64,000 nucleotides of DNA from NCBI GenBank assembly GCA_004321885.1, contig SCQK01000013.1, positions 32,001-96,000 of the forward strand, read 5' to 3'. Source of the stretch: Patescibacteria group bacterium. Its GTDB lineage: Bacteria; Patescibacteriota; Patescibacteriia; Magasanikbacterales; GWA2-37-8. This document shows positions 909 to 52,186 of this stretch, one piece after another (within the stretch, counting starts at the first letter, position 1; each line of letters starts with the position of its first letter). Position numbers and translations under genes: made by a program. The notes below the pieces were generated by a model. It worked only from the letters and a program-made list of their open reading frames with translations. It ran no database searches and was not told where the DNA came from.

Positions 909-943
909 TTGTCATTCTCCCGATTAAGTCGGGGGAATCCAGC
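909..943. repeat. Family-1 palindromic repeat, copy A (TTGTCATTCtCCCGAtTAAGTCGGGGGAATCCAGC). Intergenic, upstream of greA.
   Basis: Near-identical copies at 35405-35438, 38028-38063 and 51310-51345. Hairpin ATTCCCCCGACT/AGTCGGGGGAAT. Confidence 0.85.
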
Positions 944-947
944 ATAT

Positions 948-1418
948 ATGACAGATGAAAAAGTTCACTATCTCACTCCGCAAGGATTGGACGCGCTGAA
1001 AAAAGAATACGACGAGCTGAAAAACATAAAAATTCCGGAAATCGCGAACCGGATAGACGAGGCCAAACAGCAGGGCGACCTATCGGAAAACGCCGAATAT
1101 CACCAGGCCAAAGAAGATATGGCCTGGGCCCAAGGCCGGCTGATGGAGGTGAGATACGTACTTGACCGCGCCCAAGTAATGGAGCCGGGCAGTAAAAAAA
1201 GCGAAGTGGTGAACGTGGGCAGTACCGTGAAGACAAAGGTGAATGGCAACGAGAGACAGTACACCATCGTGGGCCCCCAGGAGGCTGACCCGCTCGCAGG
1301 CAAAATTTCCAACGAGTCTCCGTTGGGCGCGGCGTTTTTGGGCGCCAAGGCCGGGGACAAGGTAGCTGTCAGAACTCCGGCCGGAGAGCAGATTTATAAA
1401 ATTATTGAAATTAATTAA
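948..1418 (+). CDS. greA: Transcription elongation factor GreA.
   Basis: The six-frame ORF 909..1418 includes an N-terminal extension that overlaps the repeat; the real start is probably MTDEKVHY at 948. GreA/GreB N- and C-domain sequence (DLSENAEYHQAKE, SPLGAAFLGAK). Confidence 0.85.
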   Translation: MTDEKVHYLTPQGLDALKKEYDELKNIKIPEIANRIDEAKQQGDLSENAEYHQAKEDMAWAQGRLMEVRYVLDRAQVMEPGSKKSEVVNVGSTVKTKVNGNERQYTIVGPQEADPLAGKISNESPLGAAFLGAKAGDKVAVRTPAGEQIYKIIEIN

Positions 1419-1421
1419 CCT

Positions 1422-2567
1422 ATGTCTAATTTTTTAATTTCGTCAGAATCCGTAACCGAGGGTCATCCGGATAAAATTTGCGACCAAATTTCAGACGCGA
1501 TTTTGGATTCGCTTCTTACCCAGGACGCGAAATCGCACGTGGCCGTAGAAAGTTTTGTTACGACCGGTTTGGCCATAGTGGGAGGAGAAGTAAGCACGCG
1601 CGGCTACATTGACGTGCAAAAAACCGTGCGCGAGGTGTTGTGCGACATCGGCTACAACGACGCGGCTTACGGCATTGATTACGAACACGCCGGGGTTTTA
1701 GTTTCCATTCATGAACAGTCACCCGATATCGCGCAAGGCGTCAACAAGACGACCGTGGAAGAGCAGGGGGCCGGGGATCAGGGCTTGATGTTTGGCTATG
1801 CCTGCGATGAGACGCCCGAGCTGATGCCCCTGCCGATTACGTTGGCGCATAAGCTGGCGCGCCGGTTGGCCGAGGTGCGCAAAGACGGCACTCTGCCGTA
1901 CTTGCGGCCGGACGGCAAAACCCAGGTGGCCGTGGAATACAGCGATAACGGACCGGTGCGCGTGCACAATGTGGTGGTGGCGGCGCAGCATCATGAAACA
2001 GTGGCCTTGGAACAATTACGCGAGGATATAAAAAAGCACGTGATAATGCCGGTGTGCGAAAAATACGTTGACGAGCGCACGGAATATCACATCAACATGA
2101 CCGGCCGGTTCGTAGTCGGCGGTCCGCAGGGCGATACCGGACTGACCGGCAGAAAAATTATCGTTGACACTTACGGAGGCATTGGCAGGCACGGCGGCGG
2201 CTGTTTTTCAGGCAAAGACCCCTCCAAAGTTGACCGTTCCGCCGCGTACATGGCGAGATATGTCGCCAAAAATATTGTGGCAGCCGGATTGGCAAAGAAA
2301 TGCGAACTGCAGGTGGCGTATGTCATCGGCCGCGCCGAGCCGACCAGTTTGCATGTGGATACTTTTGGCACCGGCAAGGTGAGCGATGAAAAATTAGAAG
2401 AAGCGGTGAAAAAAATATTTGATTTCCGGCCGGGAAAAATTATTGAACACTTGGATTTAATGCGGCCGATATACCGTGCCACGGCCGTCTATGGTCACTT
2501 TGGCAGGCCGGAATTTCCCTGGGAGAAGACGGACAAGGCGGAAGAATTACAGAACGCGGTTTGCTAA
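1422..2567 (+). CDS. metK: S-adenosylmethionine synthetase.
   Basis: [21 protein letters not shown] and [19 protein letters not shown] motifs. Confidence 0.95.
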
Positions 2568-2580
2568 TGTTCAAAAAAAT

Positions 2581-2640
2581 AACTATACGAATTTCGTCTG
2601 ACTCACTTCGCATAGGCGCTAAATTTGTATAGTTATTTTA
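2581..2640 (+). terminator. Long inverted repeat downstream of metK (AATAACTATAC...GTATAGTTATT followed by a T-run).
   Basis: 11-bp arms read directly, then ttatttttg. Confidence 0.4.
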
Positions 2641-2644
2641 TTTT

Positions 2645-2673
2645 TGACCATTTTAGCAAATTGAGGTATAATA
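2645..2673 (+). promoter_or_regulatory. Sigma70-like promoter for lysS (TTGACC-17-TATAAT). It shares the GGTATAATATCTCT core with the xer promoter.
   Basis: ttTTGACCattttagcaaattgaggTATAATatctct. Confidence 0.5.
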
Positions 2674-2701
2674 TCTCTGCTTTTAAGCGTATTTTTGATA
2701 T

Positions 2702-5581: not shown

Positions 5582-5590
5582 TGAACACAT

Positions 5591-6874: not shown

Positions 6875-6933
6875 TACCCCTCCTATCCTCCACCTTAATT
6901 AAGGGGGGGTAAGGTAGGGGGGTAAATATTATT

Positions 6934-8939: not shown

Positions 8940-8971
8940 GGGGAATAGAGGAGGGGGTGTGGACAAGTGCG

Positions 8972-13757: not shown

Positions 13758-13835
13758 GGCTGAATGTGTTCGCAGCGCCTTATCCCGACTCAGTCGGGAT
13801 GGCCGAGGCCTCGCGGCCGAGGAAAGCGAGAACGC
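13758..13835. repeat. Structured intergenic element with nested inverted repeats (GCGCGGCTGAATGTGTTCGC...GCGAGAACGCATTCAGCCGCGC, CCCGACTCAGTCGGG, CGAGGCCTCG).
   Basis: Read directly. Lies between wecB-like and gltX, both minus strand. Its core resembles the family-1 palindrome core. Confidence 0.5.
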
Positions 13836-17848: not shown

Positions 17849-17881
17849 TACCCCCCCTCCTTTCGGAGGAGGGGGCGAGGG
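17849..17881. terminator. Bidirectional terminator hairpin between clpB and typA (CCCCCTCCTTTCGGAGGAGGGGG).
   Basis: Perfect GC-rich stem-loop read directly, in a convergent gene arrangement. Confidence 0.55.
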
Positions 17882-32596: not shown

Positions 32597-32676
32597 AGAA
32601 CCACTAATCTATATTCACTAATCACACTAATTGATGGCCACTTGTTACAATTTTACAGGAATTTGGACAAAAAAAC

Positions 32677-32699
32677 AACCCCGACTAAGTCGGGGTTGT
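32677..32699 (-). terminator. Hairpin terminator downstream of rpsI (AACCCCGACTAAGTCGGGGTT). Its core matches the family-1 palindrome.
   Basis: Perfect 9-bp stem read directly. Confidence 0.5.
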
Positions 32700-35404: not shown

Positions 35405-35438
35405 GTGTCATTCCCCCGACTAAGTCGGGGGAATCCAA
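35405..35438. repeat. Family-1 palindromic repeat, copy B. Intergenic between rpsK and rpsD.
   Basis: GTGTCATTCCCCCGACTAAGTCGGGGGAATCCA. Confidence 0.85.
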
Positions 35439-39219: not shown

Positions 39220-39582
39220 CTACTTTACCAAGCGATTTTTGCCCAACAAATTTAAAATTTTAACAATCTCTTTCTTTAATTTTGGTATATCGTTCTCAAC
39301 GATTTTCCAAACCAGATTAATATCAACTCCAAAATATTCGTGAATGAGGACGTCCCGCGTACCGGCAATTTTTTTCCATTCTACCTGAGGATGCTTCTTT
39401 TTAAAACCAGCTGGCAAGCTTTTGCATGCTTCACCGATTATTTCCAAGCGGCGAATGATCGCGTCTTGAATTGTGGTTGAATCAAAAAAAAATTTTGGCG
39501 TTAATTTCGCCGCATTTTTTTCTATTTCTTCAATACTGGTTAAAATATATTCAAGAAAAAATTCAGGCTGTCTTTTTGCCAT
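39220..39582 (-). CDS. HepT-like (DUF86) toxin of a MntA/HepT nucleotidyltransferase TA pair.
   Basis: Rx4HxY motif (RDVLIHEY). Overlaps the upstream MntA gene. Confidence 0.8.
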   Translation of the reverse strand: MAKRQPEFFLEYILTSIEEIEKNAAKLTPKFFFDSTTIQDAIIRRLEIIGEACKSLPAGFKKKHPQVEWKKIAGTRDVLIHEYFGVDINLVWKIVENDIPKLKKEIVKILNLLGKNRLVK

Positions 39583-39877
39583 AAATTACCTTTTGCCCGC
39601 TCAAAATCGTCTTTCGCAATAACGGGTTGATGCCGCCGTATGAAAGCACGTCTACTCGCAAACCGAGTTTGTCTTCCAGCTCTAATTTTAAACCAACCAA
39701 ATCTAATAATGATTTATTTTTTTGTAATTTTACAAGGAGATCCAAGTCGCTTTTTTTGGTCTGTTCGCCTCGGGCGAAAGACCCAAAAATCGCGGCCTTT
39801 GTCACCCCGTTTTTTTTAAGAATCGGAAAAATTTTTTTGTTTAACGTTTTTAAGGTCATAGTTGAAATTATTACCAA
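39563..39877 (-). CDS. MntA-like minimal nucleotidyltransferase (antitoxin).
   Basis: GSFARGE...DLDLLV (GSx9-13DxD) motif. Confidence 0.8.
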   Translation of the reverse strand: MVIISTMTLKTLNKKIFPILKKNGVTKAAIFGSFARGEQTKKSDLDLLVKLQKNKSLLDLVGLKLELEDKLGLRVDVLSYGGINPLLRKTILSGQKVIYGKKTA

Positions 39878-39941: not shown

Positions 39942-41000
39942 CTATTTTTTCTTCAACGTCGTTATCGGCCTACTTTGAGTAATGTATACTGTACCGCTTT
40001 CCATGGCCCATTCAATATCACAAGGGAAACCATAGTGTTGCTCAATTTTCTTGCACACCTTGGCCACTTCAATAATTTCTTTGCCGGTCAGCTTCTGCTT
40101 ACCCCCCTCTTTCTCACTCAACTCAATCCATTTGTTGGAGTCTCTCCCCTTTATAAGGGGAGAGTTAGTGAGGGGTAATTTCGCTTTCACCAACTTCTTC
40201 GTCTGTACTCCAACATTTATATCTACAATACTCATTTCGCTTTTGGAAACAATATAACTGTCGGGTGTAATCTGGCCGCTCACAATCGCTTCGCCCAATC
40301 CAAACCCGGCCTCAATAATCATCTGGTCGGGGTCTTCAGTAACCGGGTGCACAGTAAAGGCGATGCCCGAAATTTCCGACTGCACCATTTTCTGCACCAC
40401 TACCGCGACCGAAACATAATGGTCAATCAGTTTTTTTTCGTGACGATAAAAAATCGCGCGGGGGGTGAAAAGCGAAGACCAGCATTGCTTAACTTTTTCA
40501 ACAACGTTAACGCGCGTGGTGTTCAAATAGGTTTCCAGCTCCCCGGCCCAACTGGCCACGTCGCTGTCCTCGGCCGTAGCGCTGCTTCTCACCGCCACCA
40601 GGTTGTCATCCTGAACTTGTTTCAGGATCCCCGTTCGCCGTCTGTCATTCAGACCCCGCTTAGCGGGGGAGGAATCCCTCCCGCCCAACTCATCAAACGC
40701 CCCCAATATCTCATTCTCCAAATCTTTCGGCATGGGCGTGTCGTGTATCACATCGCGCAAAACATTACTCGCCTTGTCCACGCTGTTGGTGTCTTCGGGA
40801 TCCACGTCAGCCAATCGCGCCTCAATCTCTTCTTTCAATTTCGTTTCCTCAATAAATCTGTCAAACGCGCTCGCCAATACCACAAAACCCGGCGGCACAC
40901 GCAGTTTCGCTTTAGTCATCTCGCCAAGCGAAGCGCCCTTCCCGCCCGCGCTGGCCACATCTTTCTTGGAAATATCCTTAAAAAATTTTATGTGAGGCAT
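39942..41000 (-). CDS. Stand-alone PEP-synthase/PPDK N-terminal ATP-grasp (nucleotide-binding) domain protein. Carries two in-frame palindromic insertions.
   Basis: VASAGGKGASLGEM...VAVRSSATAED...CDIEWAMESGTVYITQSRP is collinear with the N-domain of the ppsA at 53413..56379 and stops at the domain boundary. Insertions sit at 40143-40177 (family 2) and 40607-40632 (family 3). Confidence 0.8.
   Translation of the reverse strand: MPHIKFFKDISKKDVASAGGKGASLGEMTKAKLRVPPGFVVLASAFDRFIEETKLKEEIEARLADVDPEDTNSVDKASNVLRDVIHDTPMPKDLENEILGAFDELGGRDSSPAKRGLNDRRRTGILKQVQDDNLVAVRSSATAEDSDVASWAGELETYLNTTRVNVVEKVKQCWSSLFTPRAIFYRHEKKLIDHYVSVAVVVQKMVQSEISGIAFTVHPVTEDPDQMIIEAGFGLGEAIVSGQITPDSYIVSKSEMSIVDINVGVQTKKLVKAKLPLTNSPLIKGRDSNKWIELSEKEGGKQKLTGKEIIEVAKVCKKIEQHYGFPCDIEWAMESGTVYITQSRPITTLKKK
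40143..40177. repeat. Family-2 palindromic repeat (TCTCCCCTTTATAAGGGGAGAGTTAGTGAGGGGT), in-frame in the ATP-grasp ORF.
   Basis: Shared with 54371-54409; a variant sits at 27169-27220; a related core lies at 34730-34765. Confidence 0.8.
40607..40632. repeat. Family-3 palindromic repeat (CATCCTGAACTTGTTTCAGGATCCCC), in-frame in the ATP-grasp ORF.
   Basis: Identical to 62591-62616 and near-identical to 63041-63066. Confidence 0.85.
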
Positions 41001-41036: not shown

Positions 41037-41459
41037 CTATTTAATATATTCACCGATGATCTTCATAAACTTTTTTATATCTCCACTTTCCGCTTTTAGC
41101 TCGGTCAAAAATCGTTTCATGTCAATGTCTTCGTACTTGTGCACTATCCTGTTGCGCAAACCGACTATCGGAGCCAGTTTTAGAGCAAACGCCATGGGCA
41201 AAATTTTATTCTGGCCAAGCGTGATAAATGTGCTTTGATAATCTTCGGGCGCCTGCAAATTTTTCTCGGCGATAATATGCGTGTTGATATCTACCATACA
41301 GTCCACAATGAGCTGAAACAAGCGCTCAATCGCGTGCAATTTCGTCTCATCCTGAATTAAATCAAAAACATCGTCTTCTAAAAGCGCGTCCAACTCTTTC
41401 TGATACCCGCCGATGTCGGTGAGTTTGTTGTAAATAAGCGTTTTGTTGGTCATACACAC
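41037..41459 (-). CDS. HepT-like (DUF86) toxin, second copy.
   Basis: RNRIVHKY (Rx4HxY). Confidence 0.75.
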   Translation of the reverse strand: MCMTNKTLIYNKLTDIGGYQKELDALLEDDVFDLIQDETKLHAIERLFQLIVDCMVDINTHIIAEKNLQAPEDYQSTFITLGQNKILPMAFALKLAPIVGLRNRIVHKYEDIDMKRFLTELKAESGDIKKFMKIIGEYIK

Positions 41460-41462
41460 AAT

Positions 41463-41864
41463 TTAAGCCAAAAATTTTTGAAGTTGTTTATGCCTTAATT
41501 CATAAAGCGGTTTCGCCTCAACATATCTCTTAAACGCGTACATGCGAAATTTGGCAAACTCGCCGACTTTATCCTCGTATAGAGGAACTCCGTCTCGCCC
41601 TATTTGCAGCATAAGTAACGGCGACGCTCCGCGCGCGTTCACCACTTCCACGTCGCCGCGGCCAAATATATGGCAAAAATTTTCCCGCAACCCGGCTTCT
41701 TCATAATAAGAAATTGGCCCTTTTGTTTTGACGGCAATATCAATGTCGCTGTATTTATGCGTTTTTCCGCGCGCGGCCGAACCAAATAATACGACGAAAT
41801 CAAGACCAGCTTGTTTAGCCGCCTTTTTTATCGCTGTCTTTGTTGTTGAATTTATGACTTTCAT
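41463..41864 (-). CDS. MntA-like nucleotidyltransferase antitoxin, second copy.
   Basis: GSAARGKTHKYSDIDIAV. Confidence 0.8.
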   Translation of the reverse strand: MKVINSTTKTAIKKAAKQAGLDFVVLFGSAARGKTHKYSDIDIAVKTKGPISYYEEAGLRENFCHIFGRGDVEVVNARGASPLLMLQIGRDGVPLYEDKVGEFAKFRMYAFKRYVEAKPLYELRHKQLQKFLA

Positions 41865-41908: not shown

Positions 41909-42229
41909 TTAATCAATTTTTCTCACAATTCCCTTCTCCGCGTCCACCTCCACCATATCGCCATTTTTAATCTTCCACAAAATTTCTTCCGAAAGACCGA
42001 CAATCGCCGGTTTGTTATTTTCGCGCGCCACAATAGCCGCGTGAGAAGTTACCCCGCCATGCACTGCCAAAATCGCCTTCACTTTTTTAGCCAGCGCCGC
42101 GTTTGGTTTGACTTGATTCAATAACACAATATTCTCTTCCGTGCAATGAGCAAATTGGTCAGTATGATTAATAATACAAACCAGCCCGCTCGCCTTGCCG
42201 GGACAAGCAGAAATTCCTTTGAATTGCAT
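41909..42229 (-). CDS. Stand-alone PEP-utilizing-enzyme mobile (phosphohistidine swivel) domain protein.
   Basis: ACPGKASGLVCII...HGGVTSHAAIVARENNKPAIVG...GDMVEVDAEKGIVRKID; 106 aa. Confidence 0.8.
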   Translation of the reverse strand: MQFKGISACPGKASGLVCIINHTDQFAHCTEENIVLLNQVKPNAALAKKVKAILAVHGGVTSHAAIVARENNKPAIVGLSEEILWKIKNGDMVEVDAEKGIVRKID

Positions 42230-42492
42230 AAATTATAAATAATGGCTTTGTTCTGCCATTATTTTACTCTTACTCTTGACAAAAGTCAAAAAATGTGCTA
42301 TATTGTTTTGTTGTGGTTTATTGGAAAATTGCGCTTTATTGCGCTATTTTCCGGCTATAACGTGAGTGTGTTGTTTTTTGAAAATTTGAGGTTTCTTTGG
42401 CCAGAAGTTGAATGCGTAATGCGAATATCTTTTGTTCGTAATGCGCAGTCAACTTCCACGCCCCACCGATGGGGCACACCAAGGAGAGGAAG

Positions 42493-43140
42493 ATGAAGAC
42501 CACGGTGCTGTTCACGAGGCACGAGGACCACAAAGACCAGGTCCTCCTGCCGGACGCGGTCGAGAGAGCGCGCATGCGCGGTCTGCGCCTGCGTGAGAAG
42601 GACTACAAGATCGACCGGGTCAAGGGCTCGCCCCTGCCCCGCGCCGATGCCACCGCCACCGAGATGATGACCGGCTACGGCCAGACCACGGACATCGAGC
42701 GCGAGGCGCGCCTCGGCGACTTCAAATCCGATCCAAGGACGCCGAAGGAGGCGGTGAAGGAGCTCAAGGCGAACGCGGTGGCCAAGCACGGGGATGACTC
42801 CGACTCCAACTTGGCCAAGGAGCTCATCAACACCCCCGCCCTGCACGACCTCCTCTTCGCCCGCGCGAAGGAAGGCGCCGAGGCCCTGCTGGAGATGGCC
42901 GCCGCCAACCCGGGCAAGACCATCCTGGCCGTGAGCCACGGCGTGGCCCGCATGGAGATCGTCCTGCGCTACCTGCGGGGCGTCCGCGACACCGCGCTCC
43001 TGGACATCGTCCCGGAGCTCATCGACCGCGGCGAGGTCATCAAGCTGACCTTCGAGGTCTCGGAAGAGTGGGACGACCTCGCCGAGACGCACCCGGCGCG
43101 GGCCGAGTTCGTCTCGGCCGAGCCCCTCCCGCTCCTCTAA
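42493..43140 (+). CDS. Histidine phosphatase superfamily (PGAM/SixA-like) protein on a GC-rich foreign cassette.
   Basis: RHE and SHG motifs (VLFTRHEDH, AVSHGVA). Local GC is about 65% against about 40% in the flanks. RBS AAGGAGAGG lies just upstream. Confidence 0.65.
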   Translation: MKTTVLFTRHEDHKDQVLLPDAVERARMRGLRLREKDYKIDRVKGSPLPRADATATEMMTGYGQTTDIEREARLGDFKSDPRTPKEAVKELKANAVAKHGDDSDSNLAKELINTPALHDLLFARAKEGAEALLEMAAANPGKTILAVSHGVARMEIVLRYLRGVRDTALLDIVPELIDRGEVIKLTFEVSEEWDDLAETHPARAEFVSAEPLPLL

Positions 43141-43261
43141 CCCCCCATCTCGCCCGCGTTCCGCGGGCAACTCCAAACACAACTCACTGACACGGCGGTA
43201 CGCATCGCGCGACCGCCCAACTCTCAATGCTTTTCAACGAAAAACATTGAGCGTTACAAAA

Positions 43262-43293
43262 AATCCTTCGCGTTTACGAAGGATTTTTTGTTT
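43262..43293 (+). terminator. Rho-independent terminator after the histidine phosphatase (TCCTTCG-CGTTTA-CGAAGGA plus a T-run).
   Basis: Read directly. Confidence 0.55.
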
Positions 43294-43319
43294 CTCAATT
43301 TTAATACCAGCGCGCTATT

Positions 43320-44828
43320 TCAAATTCTCCTCACCACCCCTTTATACCCATCCACCTCCAACCAATCCCCATCTTTCACCACCTCGCGCACAAACCTGGT
43401 TTGTATTACTCCCGGAATTTTGGCTTCCCGCGCAAGCGTGGCCGGGTGCGTCGTAATACCATGCCCGCCATCGCAAACCAAACCTGCCGCTTTCATAATA
43501 GCTGTGGAGAAACTGGGTACCACTTGAATACTGACGATAATATCTCCCTTCTGCACTTTATCGCATTCATCGGGATGCAAAATTACACGCGCTGGCCCCT
43601 TGGCGACTCCGGGCGAAACCGGCATACCGGTAAACTCTTTAGCGTTCTTATCTACTTTACAGAAAAGATTAAACAATCTTTCGGCCTGACTTCTCTCAAC
43701 TATCTTCATTGGCTGTCCGCGCCGACAATACCACAACATCAGTTCTATCCTTTCGTTAATATCAAAAGATAATTCTTTTCCTTTGATCAAAGCCGTTCTT
43801 ATCTCTTCTATTTTTAAGTGCCTGACCTGATTCAGACTCAAATAGAATCTGCGGCCAATCTCTTTCAAAACGCTATCAAAATAATACAAAGATTCGGAAA
43901 CGTAGCGCTTGCGCAATTCTTTCAAGTAAGCCACATGGCGCATGGAATTGAAAGAATCTTGTTCTTGCTTGCTGAAGTTCAATCTGGCCAAATATCTCTT
44001 TCTTTCGCTTTCATTTTTAGCCAAGTTACCGACCAATTTCTCATATTCCTTCCTCACATTGAGTATGAGATAGCCGGTCAAACGTTGAACTATCGATCTA
44101 AAATCCAAAACGGAGTCTTCGTAATCACGCGTTACCCAAAAATAATTTCTTTCATGCTTCCTTATAAGATTACTAAGTTTAGAATCTTTTTTAATGGCGT
44201 CTATATCTTTGGTTGTGACCAGAGAAACCCAATGTTTATCGGCTAAAATCCTTAACGCCAATTCAAACAACGCCTTCAATTCAACAGTCGCCACCATGGC
44301 GCTGGGTTCGCGCGTTAAAATGTCCAAAACTACCGCGGCCTTCCTTTTGTCCGCCACTTTGCCTTCCACCATACGTAGCAGGTCGGCGATATAATGGTCT
44401 TCCGTAATCCAAATCCATCCGTACCGAGCGTACACCTCTTTGTATTTTTTTTCATAATCAGCGAAAAATTCGTACAATGTCTGATTGCTTATTCTTTCTA
44501 AATTAGAATTGCCTGCTTTCTTGGCAAAAGCCACTAAACGCGCACCGTAGATATGCTGTTCTTTAATGAACTTGCCGACCAATTTTGAATCATAATGAAT
44601 TTTATCGGACATGTCGCGAGCAACCTCTTCGTAACCCTTCCTACCAATAAACATGTAGTGTACGTTATGCGTGCAAAAATAAAGTACCTCTCCGAGGGCA
44701 AAGCCGACGGCACTTTTCATCTCATTGCAGACAGCCTCCATTGAAAAATAATTAGGAAACGGACTGACGCGTTGGCGTTGAGACTTAAATACCCAGTGGT
44801 CGATATCCGTTGAAAATTTAACTGGCAT
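43320..44828 (-). CDS. Two-domain protein: about 400-aa N-domain of unknown function plus a C-terminal PEP-utilizers swivel domain (paralog 1 of 4).
   Basis: C-terminus: GMPVSPGVAKGPARVIL...DGGHGITTHPATLAREAKIPGV...GDWLEVDGYKGVVRRI. Confidence 0.7.
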   Translation of the reverse strand: MPVKFSTDIDHWVFKSQRQRVSPFPNYFSMEAVCNEMKSAVGFALGEVLYFCTHNVHYMFIGRKGYEEVARDMSDKIHYDSKLVGKFIKEQHIYGARLVAFAKKAGNSNLERISNQTLYEFFADYEKKYKEVYARYGWIWITEDHYIADLLRMVEGKVADKRKAAVVLDILTREPSAMVATVELKALFELALRILADKHWVSLVTTKDIDAIKKDSKLSNLIRKHERNYFWVTRDYEDSVLDFRSIVQRLTGYLILNVRKEYEKLVGNLAKNESERKRYLARLNFSKQEQDSFNSMRHVAYLKELRKRYVSESLYYFDSVLKEIGRRFYLSLNQVRHLKIEEIRTALIKGKELSFDINERIELMLWYCRRGQPMKIVERSQAERLFNLFCKVDKNAKEFTGMPVSPGVAKGPARVILHPDECDKVQKGDIIVSIQVVPSFSTAIMKAAGLVCDGGHGITTHPATLAREAKIPGVIQTRFVREVVKDGDWLEVDGYKGVVRRI

Positions 44829-44858
44829 AATTAACTGATAAAAATTTATTCAATTCTT

Positions 44859-46082
44859 TTAAATTTTTCTCACAATCCCTTTCTCCGCGTCCACCTCCAC
44901 CATATCGCCGTCTTTTAAAACCTTAGTCGCGATTTTCGTGCCGATAATACAAGGTATACCTAACTCACGGCTGACGATGGCAGCATGCGCGGTTAACCCT
45001 CCCTCGTCGGTCACGATAGCGGCCGCCTTTTTGACCGCCGTTATCAACGACGGCGTGGTCATGGATGAAACTAAAATATCACCCTTCTGCATCTTGACCT
45101 GATCTTCCCGCGTGATAACAATTTTGACCTTGCCGCGCACCTTTCCCTTGGATGCCACGAAGCCAATAATTTTATCCACCACCGCTGTTTTGTCTTCTTC
45201 AAAATAAAGCTTAAAATAATTCTGCGCCTTTTCGCCGCTTAAAATTTTTAATTTTCTCCGGCTGATCAGCAATATATAAAATTGTTGGCGGCGTTTCATT
45301 TCGCTTTCGGGCATTTTCTTGCCACCCAAATAATCGCGCAAGCTGACCGGATCGTACCAATCCAATTCAGCCAATTCTTTTTCGTTGTTGATGACCTTTC
45401 GCAAATGATCTAATAGCTGATCGTAAAGATAAGACGACACTCTTTCCCCCATTTCGTAAAAGTAAGTGAACCATGATAAAATTTCCGCAAGCTCTTTTTC
45501 TTTGGCGGTTAATTTTAGCCGTCGTGCAAGATCCTCTCTTTTTCTAATCAATCGCGGACTAGAACAATGCAATTGGTTTAATAGCCCGACAACCGCTTTC
45601 GGCACTGATAAAGTTGATAAGACATCGTCCAGCTCGCGCGCCGATACTTTCGCCGCCAGTAATTTTTTCAGCCGCTGTGCAACAGACTGCTCACCCCAGT
45701 AGCTATAGACAATAGCGCCACGCCCATAAGCGTGATATTTCATGAACAAACTGATGTAACTCCTCAAATCTTTGCGGGTCAAATTTTTATTCTCGTACTT
45801 TCTGCCCCAGTTATAACCTTGGATTAGCAACTTAACTATAATGTCACCCAAACGAGAAATATTTTTCCCTTTAAATTCTCGCAGAATAATTTTCTGCTGT
45901 CTTTTTTTGTCCGCGGGGTCAAAGTATAACGAGGTAACTCTGCCGCGGCCGACAATCGGACTTCTGGCTATTTTCGCCCGCCCAAATTTACCAATGCTCT
46001 GCGCATAAGCAATGGTGCGAAATCCGCGATCAAGCAAAGTATTTTCACGTGTTAATTGTTTGACGTATTTGACTTTGGACAT
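44859..46082 (-). CDS. Unknown N-domain plus C-terminal PEP-utilizers swivel domain (paralog 2).
   Basis: C-terminus: KGKVRGKVKIV...DEGGLTAHAAIVSRELGIPCIIG...GDMVEVDAEKGIVRKI. Confidence 0.7.
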   Translation of the reverse strand: MSKVKYVKQLTRENTLLDRGFRTIAYAQSIGKFGRAKIARSPIVGRGRVTSLYFDPADKKRQQKIILREFKGKNISRLGDIIVKLLIQGYNWGRKYENKNLTRKDLRSYISLFMKYHAYGRGAIVYSYWGEQSVAQRLKKLLAAKVSARELDDVLSTLSVPKAVVGLLNQLHCSSPRLIRKREDLARRLKLTAKEKELAEILSWFTYFYEMGERVSSYLYDQLLDHLRKVINNEKELAELDWYDPVSLRDYLGGKKMPESEMKRRQQFYILLISRRKLKILSGEKAQNYFKLYFEEDKTAVVDKIIGFVASKGKVRGKVKIVITREDQVKMQKGDILVSSMTTPSLITAVKKAAAIVTDEGGLTAHAAIVSRELGIPCIIGTKIATKVLKDGDMVEVDAEKGIVRKI

Positions 46083-46239
46083 AAATTAAAGCTTCCCCAT
46101 AACCCCCTTTAATATAGAACCCCGAAATTTGACAAATAACGTGCACATGTTATACTGATTATGGAATTGATACCGCTTCAAATAGTCCCGTTTATCGGGG
46201 CGTCCCGCAAGGGTAAGGAGCGGTATTTTTGTTTTACTC

Positions 46240-46869
46240 CTATTTCGGCCATCTTTGCACCCAAATCTCTTTGTCTGCCACGTATTTATAATAATTCGTC
46301 CAATCCTTTTTATTTTGAACTTTTCTGCTGACAACGCCGGTGATGTAATCAGCTACCTGCAGCAAATTATTTGATTTTGAACGCTGTTGTTTTAATTTTT
46401 TTATAACTTTCTTCCCGTTCGTATTTAACCGAACGCGCAAATATTTGGCAAGACGGCTGCGAAAATCCGGCGAACCTGACTTATCAAGTATTACTGTGGC
46501 GTTATTCAAATGCGGAAGCGCGTTGTTAAAAACCATCTGGCAGGCGTATTTGTAAAACGATTCTTTGGTGATAAAACCTGGCCCCCACAATTTATTTGGG
46601 TCTTTGTCTATCACGACTGCGAAGTATATAAAGCGATACGGCTGGATGGCCGATAAAAATCTTTCTTTTATCTTATCCGAATTAAAAGAAAAATGAAATT
46701 CAAAATCGGACGGCAAATCAAGCTCTTTTCGCAATAAATTAATCCGTTGGTCGCAAGATAGGGCGTCTTCATTGTCATCAAAAATAACCAAAGAAATTAT
46801 AAAATATCTGCTGGAACCGGATTCTGTTTTACGGCCGGTATCGCCGGCTTCATCTATAAAGACGAGCAT
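46240..46869 (-). CDS. DUF3800-like protein.
   Basis: N-terminal FIDEAGDTG hallmark (an IDESG-type start); 209 aa. Embedded in the paralog operon. Confidence 0.5.
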   Translation of the reverse strand: MLVFIDEAGDTGRKTESGSSRYFIISLVIFDDNEDALSCDQRINLLRKELDLPSDFEFHFSFNSDKIKERFLSAIQPYRFIYFAVVIDKDPNKLWGPGFITKESFYKYACQMVFNNALPHLNNATVILDKSGSPDFRSRLAKYLRVRLNTNGKKVIKKLKQQRSKSNNLLQVADYITGVVSRKVQNKKDWTNYYKYVADKEIWVQRWPK

Positions 46870-46879
46870 AACTGTTAAT

Positions 46880-48361
46880 TCAAATTTTCTTCACAATCCC
46901 CTTTGTCGCATCCACTTCCACCATGTCGCCGTCTCTGAAAACCTTAGTGGCGATTTTCGTGCCAATCACGCAGGGAATACCGAGTTCGCGCGAGACGATA
47001 GCCGCATGGCAGACAATGCCGCCCATATCAGTAACTATCGCCGACGCCTTTTTCATGGCCGCCACGATTTCCGGTATGGTCATTTCCGAAACCAACACAT
47101 TTCCACTTACCATTTTTTTCATATCCTCTATGGTATTTACAATCGTTACTTTCCCTTTGGCCGCGCCCGGAACCGCGGTTTGCCCCCGCAGTTCTTGAAC
47201 TGATAAATCCACTTCTTCCTCACGAGCCATATTCATTTTTGACATTACGTATCTCGCTTCTTCGCCAACAATAAACTTGGATCCATTGGCGTCCACATAT
47301 AGTAAACTATATTTCCAACGTTCATTTAATTCATCCGCGTCGCACTGCCCGCTTCTAATCGCAGAAGGAACTTCTTGTGGCAAAAAATATCGCGCTTGAC
47401 GAATTGAAATAAGCAATCTTTTTGCTACTTCCCGCAGTATTTTATCAAGCGCATAAAATCCTAAAAATTGGTGCTCTTTGCTCCATGCCTTTTGATAAAC
47501 AAGGTCTTTGGTAACGCGAAATAAATGCTTGTGTTTTTCATCAATTTTTAAATTATCAAACCAGGCGTTTTGTTTTTTTTCAGCTTCAAAAAACTGATTT
47601 TTCTGACGCAAAATTTCTTGCTCAATATCGGTCCCAGCTTCTATAATCTCCTGAATATGCTTTACCACATCCTTCTCTGTCCAAGTCGGCCCTTCACAGG
47701 CAAAGGGCAAAAAACAATACTTCCGCGCATGCGCCGCAATTTTTTCCTCCCCAACGGATAATTGAATTTTGCCTTCCACAACTTCCTTCGCCAGCTCATA
47801 AAGTTCCAAATGTTCCTGTGTACCCAAAGCCGGCTTTGTCAGCGTGAGTAAATCAGCCAAAACAAGAACGGCATCTATATCAGGATTAAACTTTTTTAAA
47901 TAGTTCAATAAATATATTCCTAATTGTTCAAACGGAATTTCCAAAAGCCAACTCGGAACACGATATAAGTGTAATTCCGTCTGTAACGGCAACAGTTGTT
48001 CGTAAATTCGCGCGAGTTCTTCGTTGGATAACTTTGATAAATCACTCTCAATAATTTTCCAGGCATAATTTCTAAGCTGCGGTAAAATTTTATCTGATTT
48101 TACATGCATATCATCAATGAGCCGGGGATTTTCCACAATTGCTTCTAAAGTTTTTTTACCGGCCACTATCCATTCATTGCGAATATAGAATAACTTTGTC
48201 GCGCCGTTTTCATACAAAGGAAGGCTGTGTGCCACATCGGCAAGCCCCAGCTTGCTCAATTCGCTTGTCATGGCGCGAAAAGGCGGCTCCAATGTAATGG
48301 GAGGATACTGATACAACTTCTCAATCATTATCCATTCTTTTCTTAACAATTCTTCATTCAT
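46880..48361 (-). CDS. Unknown N-domain plus C-terminal PEP-utilizers swivel domain (paralog 3).
   Basis: C-terminus: AVPGAAKGKVTIV...DMGGIVCHAAIVSRELGIPCVIG...GDMVEVDATKGIVKKI. Confidence 0.7.
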   Translation of the reverse strand: MNEELLRKEWIMIEKLYQYPPITLEPPFRAMTSELSKLGLADVAHSLPLYENGATKLFYIRNEWIVAGKKTLEAIVENPRLIDDMHVKSDKILPQLRNYAWKIIESDLSKLSNEELARIYEQLLPLQTELHLYRVPSWLLEIPFEQLGIYLLNYLKKFNPDIDAVLVLADLLTLTKPALGTQEHLELYELAKEVVEGKIQLSVGEEKIAAHARKYCFLPFACEGPTWTEKDVVKHIQEIIEAGTDIEQEILRQKNQFFEAEKKQNAWFDNLKIDEKHKHLFRVTKDLVYQKAWSKEHQFLGFYALDKILREVAKRLLISIRQARYFLPQEVPSAIRSGQCDADELNERWKYSLLYVDANGSKFIVGEEARYVMSKMNMAREEEVDLSVQELRGQTAVPGAAKGKVTIVNTIEDMKKMVSGNVLVSEMTIPEIVAAMKKASAIVTDMGGIVCHAAIVSRELGIPCVIGTKIATKVFRDGDMVEVDATKGIVKKI

Positions 48362-49836
48362 ATTTTTCTCACAACCCCACTTGTCGCGTCAACCTTCACC
48401 ATATCGCCGTCTTTGAGTACGGAAGTGATTTTTTTCACGCCCACCACGCAGGGAATTTTAAATTCGCGCGCCACAATGGCCGCATGGCAAGTGATGCCGC
48501 CGTCCTCCGTCACGATAGCCGAGGCGCGTTTCATAGCCGGCAACATCGCCGGATAAGTCGTGAGCGCCAACATAATATCTCCTTTTTCCACCTTATCCGC
48601 GTCTGTTAACGATAGAACAACTTTTACTTTGCCTGAAACAAAACCCGGATACGCGGTGGCGCCCTTAAATCCGTCTTCAACATTTAATTTTATTTCTTCA
48701 ATATCCAAGCCGGCTATAATCGCGTCGGCCTCTTTGCCGTAATAATACTTTGTTCCGCTTTCAGTCGCTTCAATCACGCAATGCTTAATTCTCTCATTTA
48801 TTAAATCAATGTCCAATTTGTCACGCAATAGAGCGTTTTCCATTTCGTCCGTCAAAAAATGATTCGCTTGTTTATGCGATATATTCAATCGCTTGGCAAT
48901 TTCTTTGGTGAGCATGTCCAAAACATAGTGCCCATGCCAAATACAATATTTTCTGAGATCCTTAAGCCAAATAATCTCGCGGGCGATGGCGAACAATCGC
49001 GCGAGCTGCGGGGGCAAGTTGATTTCGGAAATTACTTTATTTTGTTCCGCGATGAGTTTCTCGTAGCGTTCTTTTTCTTCTTTGAGCATTTGGTCCGGGT
49101 CAGTTACGCGAGGCAGGGCTTCCTTAACCTGCTCTTCATAATATTTCAAATCATAAGCCGGCCCGATATAGCCGTATGGCGTCCAGCGCCATTTTTGCCA
49201 ATGCTTTGTTATTAATTCTTTGTACTGGATTCCCGCTTTCGCGGGAATGACAACGGCCTTAAGCAACTCCAAAAAATCCAATTGCTCCAACTGGACAAAA
49301 TTCTGTTTAGCCGGAGTGGTAAGCAGAACAAAATATTCTATTGTTTTTACCGGATCATCTATGCCTAAACTTTTTAAATGTTCTCCTAATTTTTGCTTTA
49401 AATACTCCGAAAAAATCATGCCGTCGCTGTCCACAAACCAAGTGGTGGCGATTGATGGAAGATGACCTTGCTCGGTAAGCCATAAAAGCGTTTTGTAGTA
49501 ATCAAAAAGCTCGGCATTGTTTAGCGCGCCAAAATCTTTTCCCACCAAACTTTGAGCGTAATTAAAATAATCCCAATTTAATTTTTCGGTTCGCGCATGC
49601 AATTCCTCTGCCCACTGCGGCTCGGTAATAATTTTTTCCGCAATCCATTTCACCGTCGTTTCTATTACTTCAACCGGCACATACGCCGTATCCCTGTCGT
49701 TTCTATAATCTTGATACCAAACAGTAAATAATTGTTTGCCATTCTTTTTTGGAATATGCGCAAAAATCCCTTGGGGGTAATAGCCCAGCATGTTAAAATT
49801 CACGTCGCGGATATCAAAATTTATTCGCCATTTCAT
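48358..49836 (-). CDS. Unknown N-domain plus C-terminal PEP-utilizers swivel domain (paralog 4).
   Basis: C-terminus: AYPGFVSGKVKVV...EDGGITCHAAIVAREFKIPCVVG...GDMVKVDATSGVVRKI. Confidence 0.7.
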   Translation of the reverse strand: MKWRINFDIRDVNFNMLGYYPQGIFAHIPKKNGKQLFTVWYQDYRNDRDTAYVPVEVIETTVKWIAEKIITEPQWAEELHARTEKLNWDYFNYAQSLVGKDFGALNNAELFDYYKTLLWLTEQGHLPSIATTWFVDSDGMIFSEYLKQKLGEHLKSLGIDDPVKTIEYFVLLTTPAKQNFVQLEQLDFLELLKAVVIPAKAGIQYKELITKHWQKWRWTPYGYIGPAYDLKYYEEQVKEALPRVTDPDQMLKEEKERYEKLIAEQNKVISEINLPPQLARLFAIAREIIWLKDLRKYCIWHGHYVLDMLTKEIAKRLNISHKQANHFLTDEMENALLRDKLDIDLINERIKHCVIEATESGTKYYYGKEADAIIAGLDIEEIKLNVEDGFKGATAYPGFVSGKVKVVLSLTDADKVEKGDIMLALTTYPAMLPAMKRASAIVTEDGGITCHAAIVAREFKIPCVVGVKKITSVLKDGDMVKVDATSGVVRKI

Positions 49837-49838
49837 AT

Positions 49839-50882
49839 TTATCCGAAGTAGTTTTTCACCGCGAATTCAAATTGCTGGACAAATAATTCCTTAAAGTAGC
49901 GCAAACTATTTTGTTCGTAAAATAAAAGCAACGCCTTCTTGTATTCGGCGCTATCAACGCTTCTAAACGACAAAGGACACCAGTCATGCGCCAAGAGAAT
50001 CGCATTGCCCAAAATTCTGCCTGTTCTTTTATTTCCATCCACGAACGGCTGAATATATGAAATCATCGCCGCCGCGATTATGGCCTTGATTATCGGTTGC
50101 TCCTCTGTATTTACCGCGGAAATCATTTTTTCCATCGCTTCTTTTATTTGGAATTGGTTGTCTATCGGCTTATAATTTGTGCCGACAATACCCACTACAA
50201 TCTTCCTGTAATCATCCGTCACGCCCAAATCTTTTATCAACAAAGAATGCAGGGCGCGTATCAGCGCGGCGGTCGGTTTCTTGAATTTATTTTTATTTTT
50301 CAAAACAAAATCAAGCGCGTATTTATGATTCAATATCATCGTCGCCTCCGCTTTAGTGTGCCCTTTCGCCTCTTTCATTTCCTTTAACAATACTTCCGTA
50401 TCCAATAACGAATAAGTATTACCTTCAAGTTCAGATGATTTCCAGCTCAATTCAATCAAAAGTCGCTCTAATTCTTTTTGAGCGACATCGACCGCCATTT
50501 TGTCTGTTTTTTGTTGATACGCCTTGTTGCGCTTTTCTAAATCTTTTAATTCTTCCTTGTTAAACAAGCCGGATAAATGGTCAAAAATTTCCCAGTCAAA
50601 TCTGTATTTTATTTTTCTTTCATCCACCGGAACCGCAAAATAATCCGCGGCATTAACATAACGCAGAAGCGGAGTTTTAATTTTTGACGAATATGTGACA
50701 CTGCGAGCCTTGCCTCTCTTTTCTATCTGTCCGATCGAGAGTAAAATTTCCAATTCACGCAGGATTGTCGGTTTTGACAATCTGTCAAATTTACCCGCTA
50801 ATCCTTTAATAAGTTCGGCCGCTGTTACCTGTTCATTAGCCTGTACAAATTCCAAAATCGCTTTTTGACGTTTTGTAAGCAT
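49839..50882 (-). CDS. Fic/Doc-family protein with an N-terminal wHTH. The Fic motif has Gln in place of the catalytic His.
   Basis: IQPFVDGNKRTGRILGN matches HPFx(D/E)GN(G/K)R except for H to Q. First gene of the paralog operon. Confidence 0.7.
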   Translation of the reverse strand: MLTKRQKAILEFVQANEQVTAAELIKGLAGKFDRLSKPTILRELEILLSIGQIEKRGKARSVTYSSKIKTPLLRYVNAADYFAVPVDERKIKYRFDWEIFDHLSGLFNKEELKDLEKRNKAYQQKTDKMAVDVAQKELERLLIELSWKSSELEGNTYSLLDTEVLLKEMKEAKGHTKAEATMILNHKYALDFVLKNKNKFKKPTAALIRALHSLLIKDLGVTDDYRKIVVGIVGTNYKPIDNQFQIKEAMEKMISAVNTEEQPIIKAIIAAAMISYIQPFVDGNKRTGRILGNAILLAHDWCPLSFRSVDSAEYKKALLLFYEQNSLRYFKELFVQQFEFAVKNYFG

Positions 50883-51004
50883 ATATTATAGGCAGAGCAT
50901 ATAATTTTATCGGCCTCGCAAACCCGAATAGAATCGGGTTTGTCTCGGCCTTAATAAAATTATTGTCTCATTTTTATAGTTTAATTGTATCATAATGATA
51001 CAAT

Positions 51005-52186
51005 TCAAGCAATCACTCCCCCGCCCAAACATTCACCTTTAAGATAAAATACCGCGAACTGACCCGGGGTGACGGCGCGTTGGGGGTGAGTGAAAGTAAC
51101 TAAAGGGAGGGAAACAGTGCATCTCTGCAAAGGTTGACGGTGACGCAGGCGCACCTGGCATTTTAGCGGGAAATTGGGTGTGTTTCCACTTATCCAATTT
51201 ACGTCTTTGACCCTTGCTTCCATACTGTACAGCATATCGCTTTTCTCGTCGCCGACAATCAGTTCGTTCTTTTTTATATTCTTACCGACAACAAAGAGAG
51301 GCAACGCGCTGGATTCCCCCGTACTTAGTCGGGGGAATGACAAACTGATACGTTGGCCGATGGTGTAAAACGCCAGGCCATCGTGCTGGCCCACGACTTT
51401 ACCCCTCTCTCGCCACCGCCGCGAGGCGGGGCCCCGCCGTGGCGGTGGCTCTCCCCTTGTAAAGGGGAGAGAGAGCACTATGTTCCCGGGTTTGAATTTT
51501 ATCTTTTTCATCAAAAATTCTTTCATCGGCACTTCGCCGATGAAACAAATGCCCATGCTTTCTTCTTTTTCCGCCGTGGGCAAGCCGAATTTTTTTGCCA
51601 GGGCGCGCACCTGTGGTTTGGCATACTCACCGATGGGAAACAAAACGTGGCGCAGTTGTGCTTGAGATAATTGATTCAAAAAATATGTTTGGTCTTTATT
51701 GAGATCTTTTGACTGCAAGAGGTGCAGAACCCCACCCCCCTTTCGTTCCCCCTTTATTAAGGGAGGAAGAAACGCGTAGTGTCCAGTCGCTAATTTATCA
51801 AACCCTAACGCACGGGCTTTATCCAGCCAGGCGCCAAACTTGATGAATTTATTGCACAAAACATCCGGATTGGGCGTGCGGCCGGCCTTGTACTCGCTAT
51901 ACATGTAATCCAAAACATCGCGCTTGTATTTGCGCGTAAAATCCAGCTTCAAAAGTTTAATGCCCAGTTTGGCGGCCACGCGCAAGGCGTCGCGATAATC
52001 GCCGGTCCAACAGCGCGATCCCACCCCCCCTTCGCCCCCCCCTCTGGCATGAGGGGATATTTTCTCATCATAGTTCACCATGAACGCGCCGCTTACGTTA
52101 TATCCTTGCTTAACCAAAAGAGCGGCGGCAACGGACGAATCCACGCCGCCGGACATGGCGACTAAAATTTTTTGCTTTTTTTTCAT
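51005..52186 (-). CDS. mnmA: tRNA-specific 2-thiouridylase MnmA with several in-frame palindromic insertions.
   Basis: ILVAMSGGVDSSVAA PP-loop. Gly/Pro/Arg-rich insertions at 51310-51345 (family 1), about 51410-51478, about 51740-51770 and about 52020-52060. Confidence 0.85.
   Translation of the reverse strand: MKKKQKILVAMSGGVDSSVAAALLVKQGYNVSGAFMVNYDEKISPHARGGGEGGVGSRCWTGDYRDALRVAAKLGIKLLKLDFTRKYKRDVLDYMYSEYKAGRTPNPDVLCNKFIKFGAWLDKARALGFDKLATGHYAFLPPLIKGERKGGGVLHLLQSKDLNKDQTYFLNQLSQAQLRHVLFPIGEYAKPQVRALAKKFGLPTAEKEESMGICFIGEVPMKEFLMKKIKFKPGNIVLSLPFTRGEPPPRRGPASRRWRERGKVVGQHDGLAFYTIGQRISLSFPRLSTGESSALPLFVVGKNIKKNELIVGDEKSDMLYSMEARVKDVNWISGNTPNFPLKCQVRLRHRQPLQRCTVSLPLVTFTHPQRAVTPGQFAVFYLKGECLGGGVIA
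51310..51345. repeat. Family-1 palindromic repeat, copy D, in-frame inside mnmA (encodes LSFPRLSTGESS).
   Basis: The reverse complement equals copy C. Confidence 0.85.

Follow-up and report, generated by a model that had tools for sequence, protein, structure and literature searches.

A hairpin repeat read in frame in AlaRS and MnmA of a Patescibacteria genome is probably a subfamily of the CGTC-tagged REP superfamily

The window, i.e., the whole 64-kb stretch of DNA analysed here, carries four copies of a short palindromic element (family-1), two of them intergenic and two in frame in genes. Copy A (TTGTCATTCTCCCGATTAAGTCGGGGGAATCCAG; 909–942, + strand; 34 nt, 7-nt-loop type) sits in the greA 5′ leader and ends 5 nt before the ATG at 948, with a TTGACT/TATAAT pair recognised by eye upstream. 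Copy B (GTGTCATTCCCCCGACTAAGTCGGGGGAATCCAA; 35405–35438, + strand) occupies the rpsK–rpsD spacer, between the genes for S11 (stop at 35451) and S4. Copy C (TTGTCATTCCCCCGACTAAGTACGGGGGAATCCAG; 38028–38062, + strand; 35 nt, 8-nt-loop variant) is in frame in AlaRS and copy D, of the same sequence (51309–51343, - strand), in MnmA, both genes being on the - strand. The earlier note on this DNA had described two intergenic copies and two in-frame copies in essential genes, and Pfam confirmed the gene identities, including greA, S11 and S4. All four copies claimed there are present, with about 0.2 expected by chance; the arm ATTCCCCCGACT has five matches against 0.21 expected, a count reached in none of 100 shuffles. 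The coordinates given there for C and D were shifted by 1–2 nt. Copies C and D, as claimed, are exact reverse complements across 35 nt.

Each copy had been thought to form a perfect hairpin, but only copy B does so, with a perfect 12-bp stem and a loop of 1–3 nt. Two C>T changes in copy A give G.T pairs in the stem, and one additional A in copies C and D leaves a 9-bp stem and an 8-nt loop. In + strand RNA, the changes in copy A preserve pairing as G.U. The computed single-stranded DNA folds range from -7.7 to -12.1 kcal/mol (z -3.3 to -5.6). All four copies have the same anatomy: an unpaired head, TGTC, directly precedes a stem that starts with AT-TCC and ends with GGA-AT, and a tail CCA(G/A) follows. 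The inner core CCCGACTNAGTCGGG matches exactly at 13784, 32680, 35415, 52958, and 53360, and with up to two mismatches it has eight matches against 0.11 expected. Outside family-1, it recurs in a stand-alone CATCCCGACTGAGTCGGGA(T) 44 nt upstream of gltX (13782–13800, - strand), in an intrinsic-terminator-like hairpin of rpsI with the core CCCCGACTNAGTCGGGG (32675–32699, - strand; a 12-bp stem and then a T run on the - strand), and at the tRNA-like sites discussed below. These recurrences had been noted earlier, with one position, given as 52949, wrong by 9 nt.

Related hairpins are found elsewhere in the window, and at least ten CGTC-type copies lie inside genes (AlaRS, CysRS, MnmA, PriA, and others). 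A canonical CGTC-1/NTS-type copy, TGTCATTCCCGCGAAAGCGGGAATCCAG (49225–49252, - strand), is the NTS core itself, with an 8-bp stem and a 4-nt loop, and is in frame (VIPAKAGIQ) in a PEP-utilizers paralog. An SRM ('Ssn-related motif') copy with a weak hairpin (20951–20978, - strand) encodes WIPVFAGMT in the predicted signal peptide of a Peptidase_S11 protein, and the superfamily copy GTCATTCCGGCCTTGTGCCGGAATCCA (25483–25509, + strand) is in frame in PriA (CHSGLVPES). A sister subfamily, GTCATCCTGAACTTGTTTCAGGATCCCC, is in frame in a PPDK_N protein (40605–40632, + strand) and in CysRS (HPELVSGSP; 62589–62616, + strand), with a second CysRS copy at 63039–63066 (+ strand). The published SRM pattern, HGTCWYN(0-2)YYVSBRHN(0-5)WNVSBRGN(0-2)RNCYNB, has five matches in the window (910, 20951, 38029, 49225, and 51309), whereas 30 first-order Markov simulations averaged 0.2. 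Among the family-1 copies, A, C, and D fit the pattern, and B departs from it at the last base only.

Copy C encodes LDSPVLSRGNDN at amino acids 381–392 of AlaRS, and copy D encodes SFPRLSTGESS at amino acids 283–293 of MnmA; the corresponding NCBI protein annotations (P0001 and P0121) agree at 100% identity, inserts included. The ortholog alignments that the earlier note had proposed contained the same peptide in none of 23 AlaRS and none of 19 MnmA sequences in the aligned samples, which makes the coding copies lineage-specific. At the same AlaRS and MnmA loops, SRM-like peptides of different sequence are seen in other lineages. Where it was measurable, the net length gain is 11 aa in AlaRS and 26 aa in a Tgt with a dimer, which fits 33 nt per copy; the closest relatives are ~76% (AlaRS) and 64% (MnmA) identical, and the insertion boundaries are only approximate. 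Because the MnmA copy adds only 7 aa relative to short orthologs and copy 49225 shows no net length difference from its paralog, simple insertion is supported for part of the copies. Within the clade, MnmA orthologs vary in length between 337 and 448 aa; repeat-like peptides occupy the variable sites, and insertions have recurred in one loop of MnmA. A surface-loop position had been expected for the inserts. In the predicted structure, the AlaRS insert overlaps a coil with pLDDT below 50 (386–396), located after helices 352–387 and before helix 402–412.

The two loop variants differ sharply in location. All eight copies of the 8-nt-loop (33-nt) variant are in real coding sequences (AlaRS, MnmA, RluD-like twice, Tgt, MiaA-like, UvrD-like, and a membrane protein), compared to none of the seven copies of the 7-nt-loop (32-nt) variant. 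This always-coding versus never-coding split is a clear case of selection filtering the persistence of hairpin repeats. Inverted dimers occur in an RluD-like gene (L021) and in Tgt (L023). We propose that the family-1 hairpin would form on single-stranded DNA, where a small Ssn-type GIY-YIG nuclease would bind it and nick a few nucleotides upstream, and that new copies could arise via a single-strand intermediate or by recombination or repair at nicks. Purifying selection would retain coding copies whose added length is a multiple of three, which lie in one of four stop-free frames, and which land in a permissive loop. The 8-nt-loop variant fits the length condition because T+31+A gives 33 nt, i.e., 11 codons. 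Family-1 is presumably mobile and selfish; the 64-kb window and the relatives compared showed no transposition event, empty site, or target duplication.

The head, the oriented hairpin, and the tail place family-1 close to a known superfamily, in which the unpaired head is (T/C)GTC and the tail is CCA(G). This superfamily goes under other names, i.e., Neisseria dRS3/NTS, SRM, and Rickettsia RPE-6/RPE-4. Judged on sequence features, family-1 probably belongs to the CGTC-tagged REPs as a subfamily of its own; this reading, together with the mechanism proposed above, is the best explanation as a whole. More than 100 stretches contain the exact outer frame GTCATTCCCCCG..CGGGGGAATCC; they come from MAGs whose labels span many phyla (Calditrichia, Nitrospirota, Endomicrobiales, Dehalococcoidales, Ignavibacterium, Bacteroidetes, PVC, Gammaproteobacteria, and several Patescibacteria), although MAG phylum labels can err. 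The element is not confined to a few lineages, outside which the earlier note had known of no description. The inner stems between the outer frame are palindromic and genome-specific.

The partner enzyme of family-1 may be of the Ssn type. The window's only candidate hairpin nuclease is an 86-aa single-domain GIY-YIG ORF (52985–53245, + strand; PF01541, E 1e-9), flanked together with a tRNA-Asp by 40-nt direct repeats of the same sequence (52945–52984 and 53347–53386, both + strand). Each repeat carries the hairpin TCCCGACTGAGTCGGGA, which contains the inner core of family-1 without the GTCAT head and the ATCC tail. On the tentative reading given below, this palindrome replaces the anticodon arm of a split tRNA-Asp-like gene that encloses the GIY-YIG ORF and the intact tRNA-Asp, and the same layout, with an ORF 60% identical, occurs in another Magasanikbacteria lineage. 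Ssn is a small GIY-YIG nuclease that cuts single-stranded DNA, and Ssn genes encode a single GIY-YIG domain (cd10448) and are typically flanked by their motif (PMC11893778). The hairpin–gene–hairpin layout of the window resembles that of SsnA/NTS; however, the window's GIY-YIG protein could be a member of another subfamily. The relative closest to it among solved proteins is a UPF0213 protein, and the window protein is only 38% identical, across 53 aa, to the Ssn-like protein of the Patescibacteria MAG L062. In L062, Ssn-like GIY-YIG genes adjoin SRMs, and in L002 and L034 they lie beside or near pattern matches. That the nested ORF at 52985–53245 itself encodes the nuclease with which the family-1 hairpins are paired is a tentative and rather doubtful proposal. 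If true, it would represent a new Ssn-like system in Patescibacteria, in which the target hairpin mimics a tRNA anticodon arm and the activity of the module seeds hairpins into coding sequences.

Among the other explanations, it is improbable that a host function preserves the copies while they lack mobility or have lost it, with the copies acting either as an RNA hairpin in mRNA stability or translation or as a DNA site in recombination or transformation. Copy A in the greA leader with its retained G.U pairing, copy B within a ribosomal-protein operon, and the identity of the 8-nt-loop variant (31 nt) among MAGs and metagenome contigs of differing sources would suit such a role. Genes for type IV pilus components (PilM, prepilin peptidase, and pilins) also lie in the window, which makes DNA uptake plausible. 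However, the copies lie in both orientations relative to transcription and within protein loops of unrelated enzymes, and no T run follows the family-1 hairpin. A host role also leaves the origin of the copies unexplained, and it is compatible with the mobile-element view.

A GTAG-type REP moved by RAYT, an IS200/IS605-like tyrosine transposase, is less probable still. The size, the unpaired tag of the hairpin, and the inverted dimers in relatives (L021) are as such an element would have them, but the tag is TGTC/CGTC and not GTAG, CGTC REPs have no RAYT association (Di Nocera 2013, PMC3733652), and no Y1 (HUH) transposase domain was found in about 60 window ORFs. We consider very unlikely a lineage-specific MITE outside the known families, with a classical DDE transposase, terminal inverted repeats, and target-site duplication. 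MITEs are 70–300 bp long, with terminal inverted repeats of 15–30 bp and a target-site duplication. Family-1 is likewise short, palindromic, and dispersed, with C and D identical in unlinked genes; however, at 33–35 nt it is far shorter than that, its flanks show no target duplication (compared without an empty site), about 60 window ORFs contained no Pfam transposase domain, and its asymmetric head and tail are conserved in MAGs labelled as many phyla. An assembly or sequencing artefact, to which nothing specific points, is extremely unlikely, as reading frames are intact in essential genes, NCBI protein records carry the peptides, and the element occurs in independent assemblies and in metagenomes from different studies.

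The preferred reading, a CGTC-tagged REP subfamily, invites comparison with several known systems. Rickettsia is an obligate intracellular alphaproteobacterium, whose palindromic elements RPE-1 to RPE-10 were reportedly described by Ogata et al. in 2000 and 2002; classic RPE-1 is about 100–150 bp. Family-1 shares with these elements the in-frame tolerance in functional proteins, here AlaRS, MnmA, PriA, CysRS, PPDK_N, and PEP-utilizers, whereas classic RPE-1, a longer palindromic insertion (PMC3733652), is unrelated in sequence and far longer than 33–35 nt. The RPE-like behaviour that the earlier note had recognised points to a closer kinship, since RPE-6 of R. conorii is a CGTC-1 REP and its RPE-4 a CGTC-4 REP (Di Nocera 2013, PMC3733652), in the same superfamily. 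The intragenic CGTC-1 peptides of R. conorii (SFPRKRES, VIPAKAGI, DSRFRGND, WIPAFTGMT, and CHSRESGNP; PMC3733652) use the same reading frames as the window copies; this likeness is one of peptide frames. In its passages on GTAG REPs and REPINs with RAYT, the same source describes elements alike in unpaired tag, inverted dimers, and presumed single-strand mechanism, which differ from CGTC REPs in the tag and the RAYT link (PMC3733652).

CGTC REPs of families CGTC-1 to -4 are 20–40 bp long and multicopy, often as inverted dimers, with an 8–9-bp stem and a 4–5-nt loop (Di Nocera, De Gregorio, Rocco 2013, BMC Genomics 14:522; PMC3733652). The unpaired head is CGTC, replaced by TGTC in many repeats, or CCTC; stem positions 1–2 are AT, and the tails are CCA (PMC3733652). 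Family-1 shares the head, the AT stem start, the CCA tail, the multicopy state, and, in relatives, the inverted dimers, and copy 49225 is a textbook CGTC-1 match. However, its stems and loops of 12 bp/1–3 nt (B) and 9 bp/8 nt (C and D) fall outside CGTC-1 to -4, and family-1 therefore represents a further subfamily. In-frame intragenic CGTC and GTAG REPs are already published for DNA repair, tRNA synthetase, and pseudouridine synthase genes (PMC3733652), but the share of intragenic copies in this window is large by comparison, and Patescibacteria are absent from the five phyla listed there. The dRS3/NTS/SRM family, with Ssn as candidate partner family, was described by Chenal et al. (2025, Nat Commun 16:2388; PMC11893778) without mention of intragenic or in-frame copies or of Patescibacteria. 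NTS is CGTCATTCCCGCGMAVGCGGGAATCYRG, and NTS/SsnA modulates recombination or natural transformation in Neisseria (PMC11893778); family-1 keeps the NTS frame GTCATTCCC...GGGAATCCAG. Patescibacteria appear to carry DNA-uptake machinery, and a putative system of the Ssn type, with single-stranded DNA as its substrate, could affect their gene flow. Their genomes are small and streamlined, yet in this window at least ten hairpin copies lie inside genes, which bears on annotation and protein modelling. This kind of element is already described and widespread; what is new is the host and the subfamily, i.e., a Patescibacteria host that extends the range of the dRS3/NTS/SRM family, a longer stem, and the coding split between loop variants.

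Family-1, a repeated hairpin element of 34–35 nt, occurs in four copies in the window, as the earlier note had claimed, with small corrections to their coordinates. Copies A (909–942, plus strand), 5 nt upstream of the greA ATG, and B (35405–35438, plus strand), in the spacer between rpsK (S11) and rpsD (S4), are intergenic. Copies C (38028–38062, plus strand) and D (51309–51343, minus strand) lie in frame within AlaRS (aa 381–392, peptide LDSPVLSRGNDN) and MnmA (aa 283–293, peptide SFPRLSTGESS), respectively. All of these hosts were confirmed by Pfam, and the NCBI protein records of AlaRS and MnmA are 100% identical to the window genes, peptides included. The source bacterium belongs to the Patescibacteria, and its nearest protein relatives are labelled Magasanikbacteria. 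The 12-nt arm has five matches in the window against 0.21 expected, and 0 shuffles reach five. The claimed identity of C and D holds over all 35 nt, whereas the description of each copy as a perfect hairpin applies to B only, with its perfect 12-bp stem; two C>T changes give G.T pairs in A, and one extra A leaves C and D with a 9-bp stem and an 8-nt loop. Folded as ssDNA, the copies reach −7.7 to −12.1 kcal/mol (z −3.3 to −5.6). The few copies in the window showed no pattern of strand bias with respect to replication or transcription.

Loop length partitions family-1 between coding and noncoding sequence. Counted as the unit T+31+A, the 8-nt-loop variant is 33 nt long (11 codons) and the 7-nt-loop variant 32 nt. 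The former lies in real coding sequence in 8/8 cases (AlaRS, MnmA, an RluD-like gene with two inverted copies, Tgt, a MiaA-like gene, a UvrD-like gene, and a membrane protein), the latter in 0/7, where the ORFs that run across it are leaders upstream of CarB and EpmA-like genes or look noncoding. Most host genes were named by eye from conserved motifs, with Tgt and RluD confirmed against solved structures. AlaRS is a net 11 aa longer and Tgt, which holds a dimer separated by a 4-codon spacer, a net 26 aa longer; both gains are consistent with 33 nt per copy. Of the element's six reading frames, four contain no stop codon, and three of those four are in use.

The coding copies in AlaRS and MnmA appear from the ortholog alignments to be lineage-specific insertions. 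The family-1 peptide is present in 0/23 aligned AlaRS orthologs; the closest (76% identity) is net 11 residues shorter at the insert loop, and one carries a different repeat-like peptide, LDFPRLHSGQVARDPEL, at the same loop. The counterpart of this site in Aquifex AlaRS (1RIQ) is the segment EVIQKA..LEEGRK. In the AlphaFold model, the insert (aa 381–392) covers the end of helices 352–387 and the following coil, with pLDDT <50 across residues 386–396, before helix 402–412. MnmA orthologs within the clade range from 337 to 448 aa, and many of them have a short loop (GL-K-x5-KP) following YTIGQRI. This loop is a recurrent insertion site: in other lineages it holds other hairpin-type peptides, such as SFRAERSGVEESL and LSSRAKPRDP, at times as inverted pairs. 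The earlier note had held that identical peptides in distant orthologs would speak against its reading; other lineages carry different peptides and none of the aligned AlaRS or MnmA orthologs an identical one, so this objection falls. An exact empty site was sought for both insertions and none was found, the closest orthologs (76% and 64%) being too distant to define boundaries or target duplications. Simple insertion does not seem to fit every copy: MnmA gains only 7 aa relative to its short orthologs, and the net length change of a further repeat copy at 49225 relative to its paralog is zero. MnmA contains about four repeat-like inserts altogether.

Related hairpins are found elsewhere in the window. 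The Neisseria NTS is CGTCATTCCCGCGMAVGCGGGAATCYRG, with the dRS3 repeat within it (Chenal et al. 2025, PMC11893778), and the "Ssn-related motif" (SRM) is its generalised form (PMC11893778). The published SRM pattern has five matches in the window, A, C and D among them, versus 0.2 in simulations. PriA (25483) and a PEP-utilizers paralog (49225) each hold an in-frame copy with the head and tail frame of family-1, the latter copy (49225–49252) being the NTS core itself. A third copy with this frame, an SRM match (20951–20978), encodes WIPVFAGMT, which falls in the hydrophobic core of the signal peptide predicted for a Peptidase_S11 protein (D-Ala-D-Ala carboxypeptidase). A sister type, GTCATCCTGAAC..GTTTCAGGATCC, has one copy in a PPDK_N protein (40605) and two in CysRS (62589 and 63039). 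A second hairpin superfamily, (C)TCCCCT..AGGGGA(G), occurs at 17853–17875, 27178–27210, 28607–28629, 40142–40164 and 51449–51471, several of these copies being read in frame within a Wzy_C-like protein, PPDK_N and MnmA (the last giving PPLIKGE). The Wzy_C-like membrane protein also contains in frame a long palindrome, GTCATTGCGA...TCGCAATGAC (28098–28153, encoding VIATPSSSVGLKAATLAMT), whose GTCAT head at each end resembles a head-out dimer.

The most interesting lead from the window is a module (52930–53406) in which a single-domain GIY-YIG ORF (52985–53245; PF01541, E 1e-9), the only such ORF in the window, and an intact tRNA-Asp(GTC) are nested within a split tRNA-Asp-like gene (5′ part 52930–52984, 3′ part 53347–53406), with a 40-nt direct repeat on both sides. 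The tRNA-Asp-like gene has the palindrome TCCCGACTGAGTCGGGA in place of its 17-nt anticodon arm. A second Magasanikbacteria lineage (L102, 2880–3540) has the same layout around an ORF of 60% identity. Rfam searches in E-value mode over 52700–53500 and L102 returned only tRNA-Asp and no known RNA family for the module. Upstream of gltX there is a further CATCCCGACTGAGTCGGGA copy, and the core is also present in the rpsI terminator; the recurrence of the inner core noticed earlier is real, in four outer contexts. Inner stems co-evolving with a lineage-specific hairpin-binding protein would fit this recurrence. A word-based homolog search with the GIY-YIG ORF returned only two hits and an exhaustive HMMER search 1227 representative proteins (E ≤ 0.001), the best 150 of which are mostly 60–160 aa.

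The anatomy, distribution and selection pattern of family-1 were observed, and its mode of spread is suggested by known systems and by gene content. SsnA, a 94-aa single-domain GIY-YIG nuclease, binds SRM-type hairpins as ssDNA and cuts a few nucleotides upstream of the hairpin, and the motif often flanks the ssnA gene (PMC11893778). By analogy, an Ssn-type nuclease may recognise the family-1 DNA hairpin, and the element would spread via a single-strand intermediate. This mechanism is supported by Ssn-like GIY-YIG genes that adjoin SRMs in a Patescibacteria MAG (L062) and lie beside or near pattern matches at two other loci (L002 and L034). Support also comes from the single-domain GIY-YIG ORF and from the lack of any Pfam transposase domain among the ~60 window ORFs scanned. 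That ORF matches the L062 protein at 38% identity over 53 aa only, and among solved structures a UPF0213 protein is its nearest relative; it is therefore a candidate Ssn in the strict sense. The window does encode one XerC/D-like tyrosine recombinase, HepT/MNT toxin-antitoxin pairs, Fic, and type IV pilus genes. The pilus cluster (58482–61924) comprises a prepilin peptidase, two paralogous pilins (5′ ends 80% identical), a response regulator and PilM, and is relevant to DNA uptake should Ssn-type systems target incoming ssDNA. Five consecutive paralogous ORFs (41909–49836) end in a PEP-utilizers mobile domain with highly similar 3′ ends (repeat D1); a DUF3800 gene is interleaved, and HepT/MNT pairs (39220–39877 and 41037–41864) adjoin the run. 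A treble-clef zinc finger domain (PF23477) occurs in two ORFs (19719–20228 and 52254–52565), the second with an internal 101-nt direct repeat (52279–52379 and 52441–52541).

Family-1 belongs to a much wider assemblage. A scan for the outer frame, GTCATTCCCCCG-N5-9-CGGGGGAATCC, in which each species was represented by one genome, found it, among the matches listed, in >100 stretches from MAGs labelled Calditrichia, Nitrospirota, Endomicrobiales, Dehalococcoidales, Ignavibacterium, Bacteroidetes, PVC, Gammaproteobacteria and several Patescibacteria. The outer frame does not vary, and the inner stem and loop are genome-specific yet palindromic (AGTACT, AACGCTTT, CCAGCTGG, ACTAAGT(A)). At the loci not labelled Patescibacteria, the copies are mostly outside long ORFs; at several Patescibacteria loci, the copies are inside. 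One UvrD/PcrA-like helicase on a Hainich groundwater contig (L114) carries three different SRM-type peptides (VIPAQAGIQ, VIPPTKYGGIQ and LDSCFRRNDK), echoing the published finding that intragenic REPs are enriched in DNA repair genes. Rfam at gathering thresholds over the whole window returned only tRNA-Asp and no known RNA family for the element. Literature searches with the encoded peptides (RFRGND and others) gave no match, and those combining CPR/Patescibacteria with MITE, REP or palindromic repeats found no paper on such elements.

The CGTC-tagged REP superfamily was defined earlier by Di Nocera et al. 2013 (PMC3733652), with a CGTC (often TGTC) head, AT at the stem start and a CCA tail. 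In that work dRS3 is equated with CGTC-1, and the R. conorii elements RPE-6 and RPE-4 with CGTC-1 and CGTC-4 (PMC3733652). The likeness in behaviour to Rickettsia palindromic elements proposed in the earlier note is right, and the family includes RPE-4 and RPE-6, but the note's view of the element as described in few lineages does not stand: the family is known and widespread, and in-frame copies were already catalogued, including in tRNA synthetase and pseudouridine synthase genes (PMC3733652). The window peptides SFPRLSTGES, VIPAKAGIQ, DSPVLSRGND, WIPVFAGMT and CHSGLVPES use the same four reading frames as the published SFPRKRES, VIPAKAGI, DSRFRGND, WIPAFTGMT and CHSRESGNP (PMC3733652). Anatomy, SRM match and peptide frames thus indicate that family-1 is a further subfamily of this known superfamily. 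New here are the subfamily and its host phylum (Patescibacteria), the partition by length variant, and the loop sites that recur, and family-1 differs from the described CGTC-tagged REPs in its longer stem and different host phylum.
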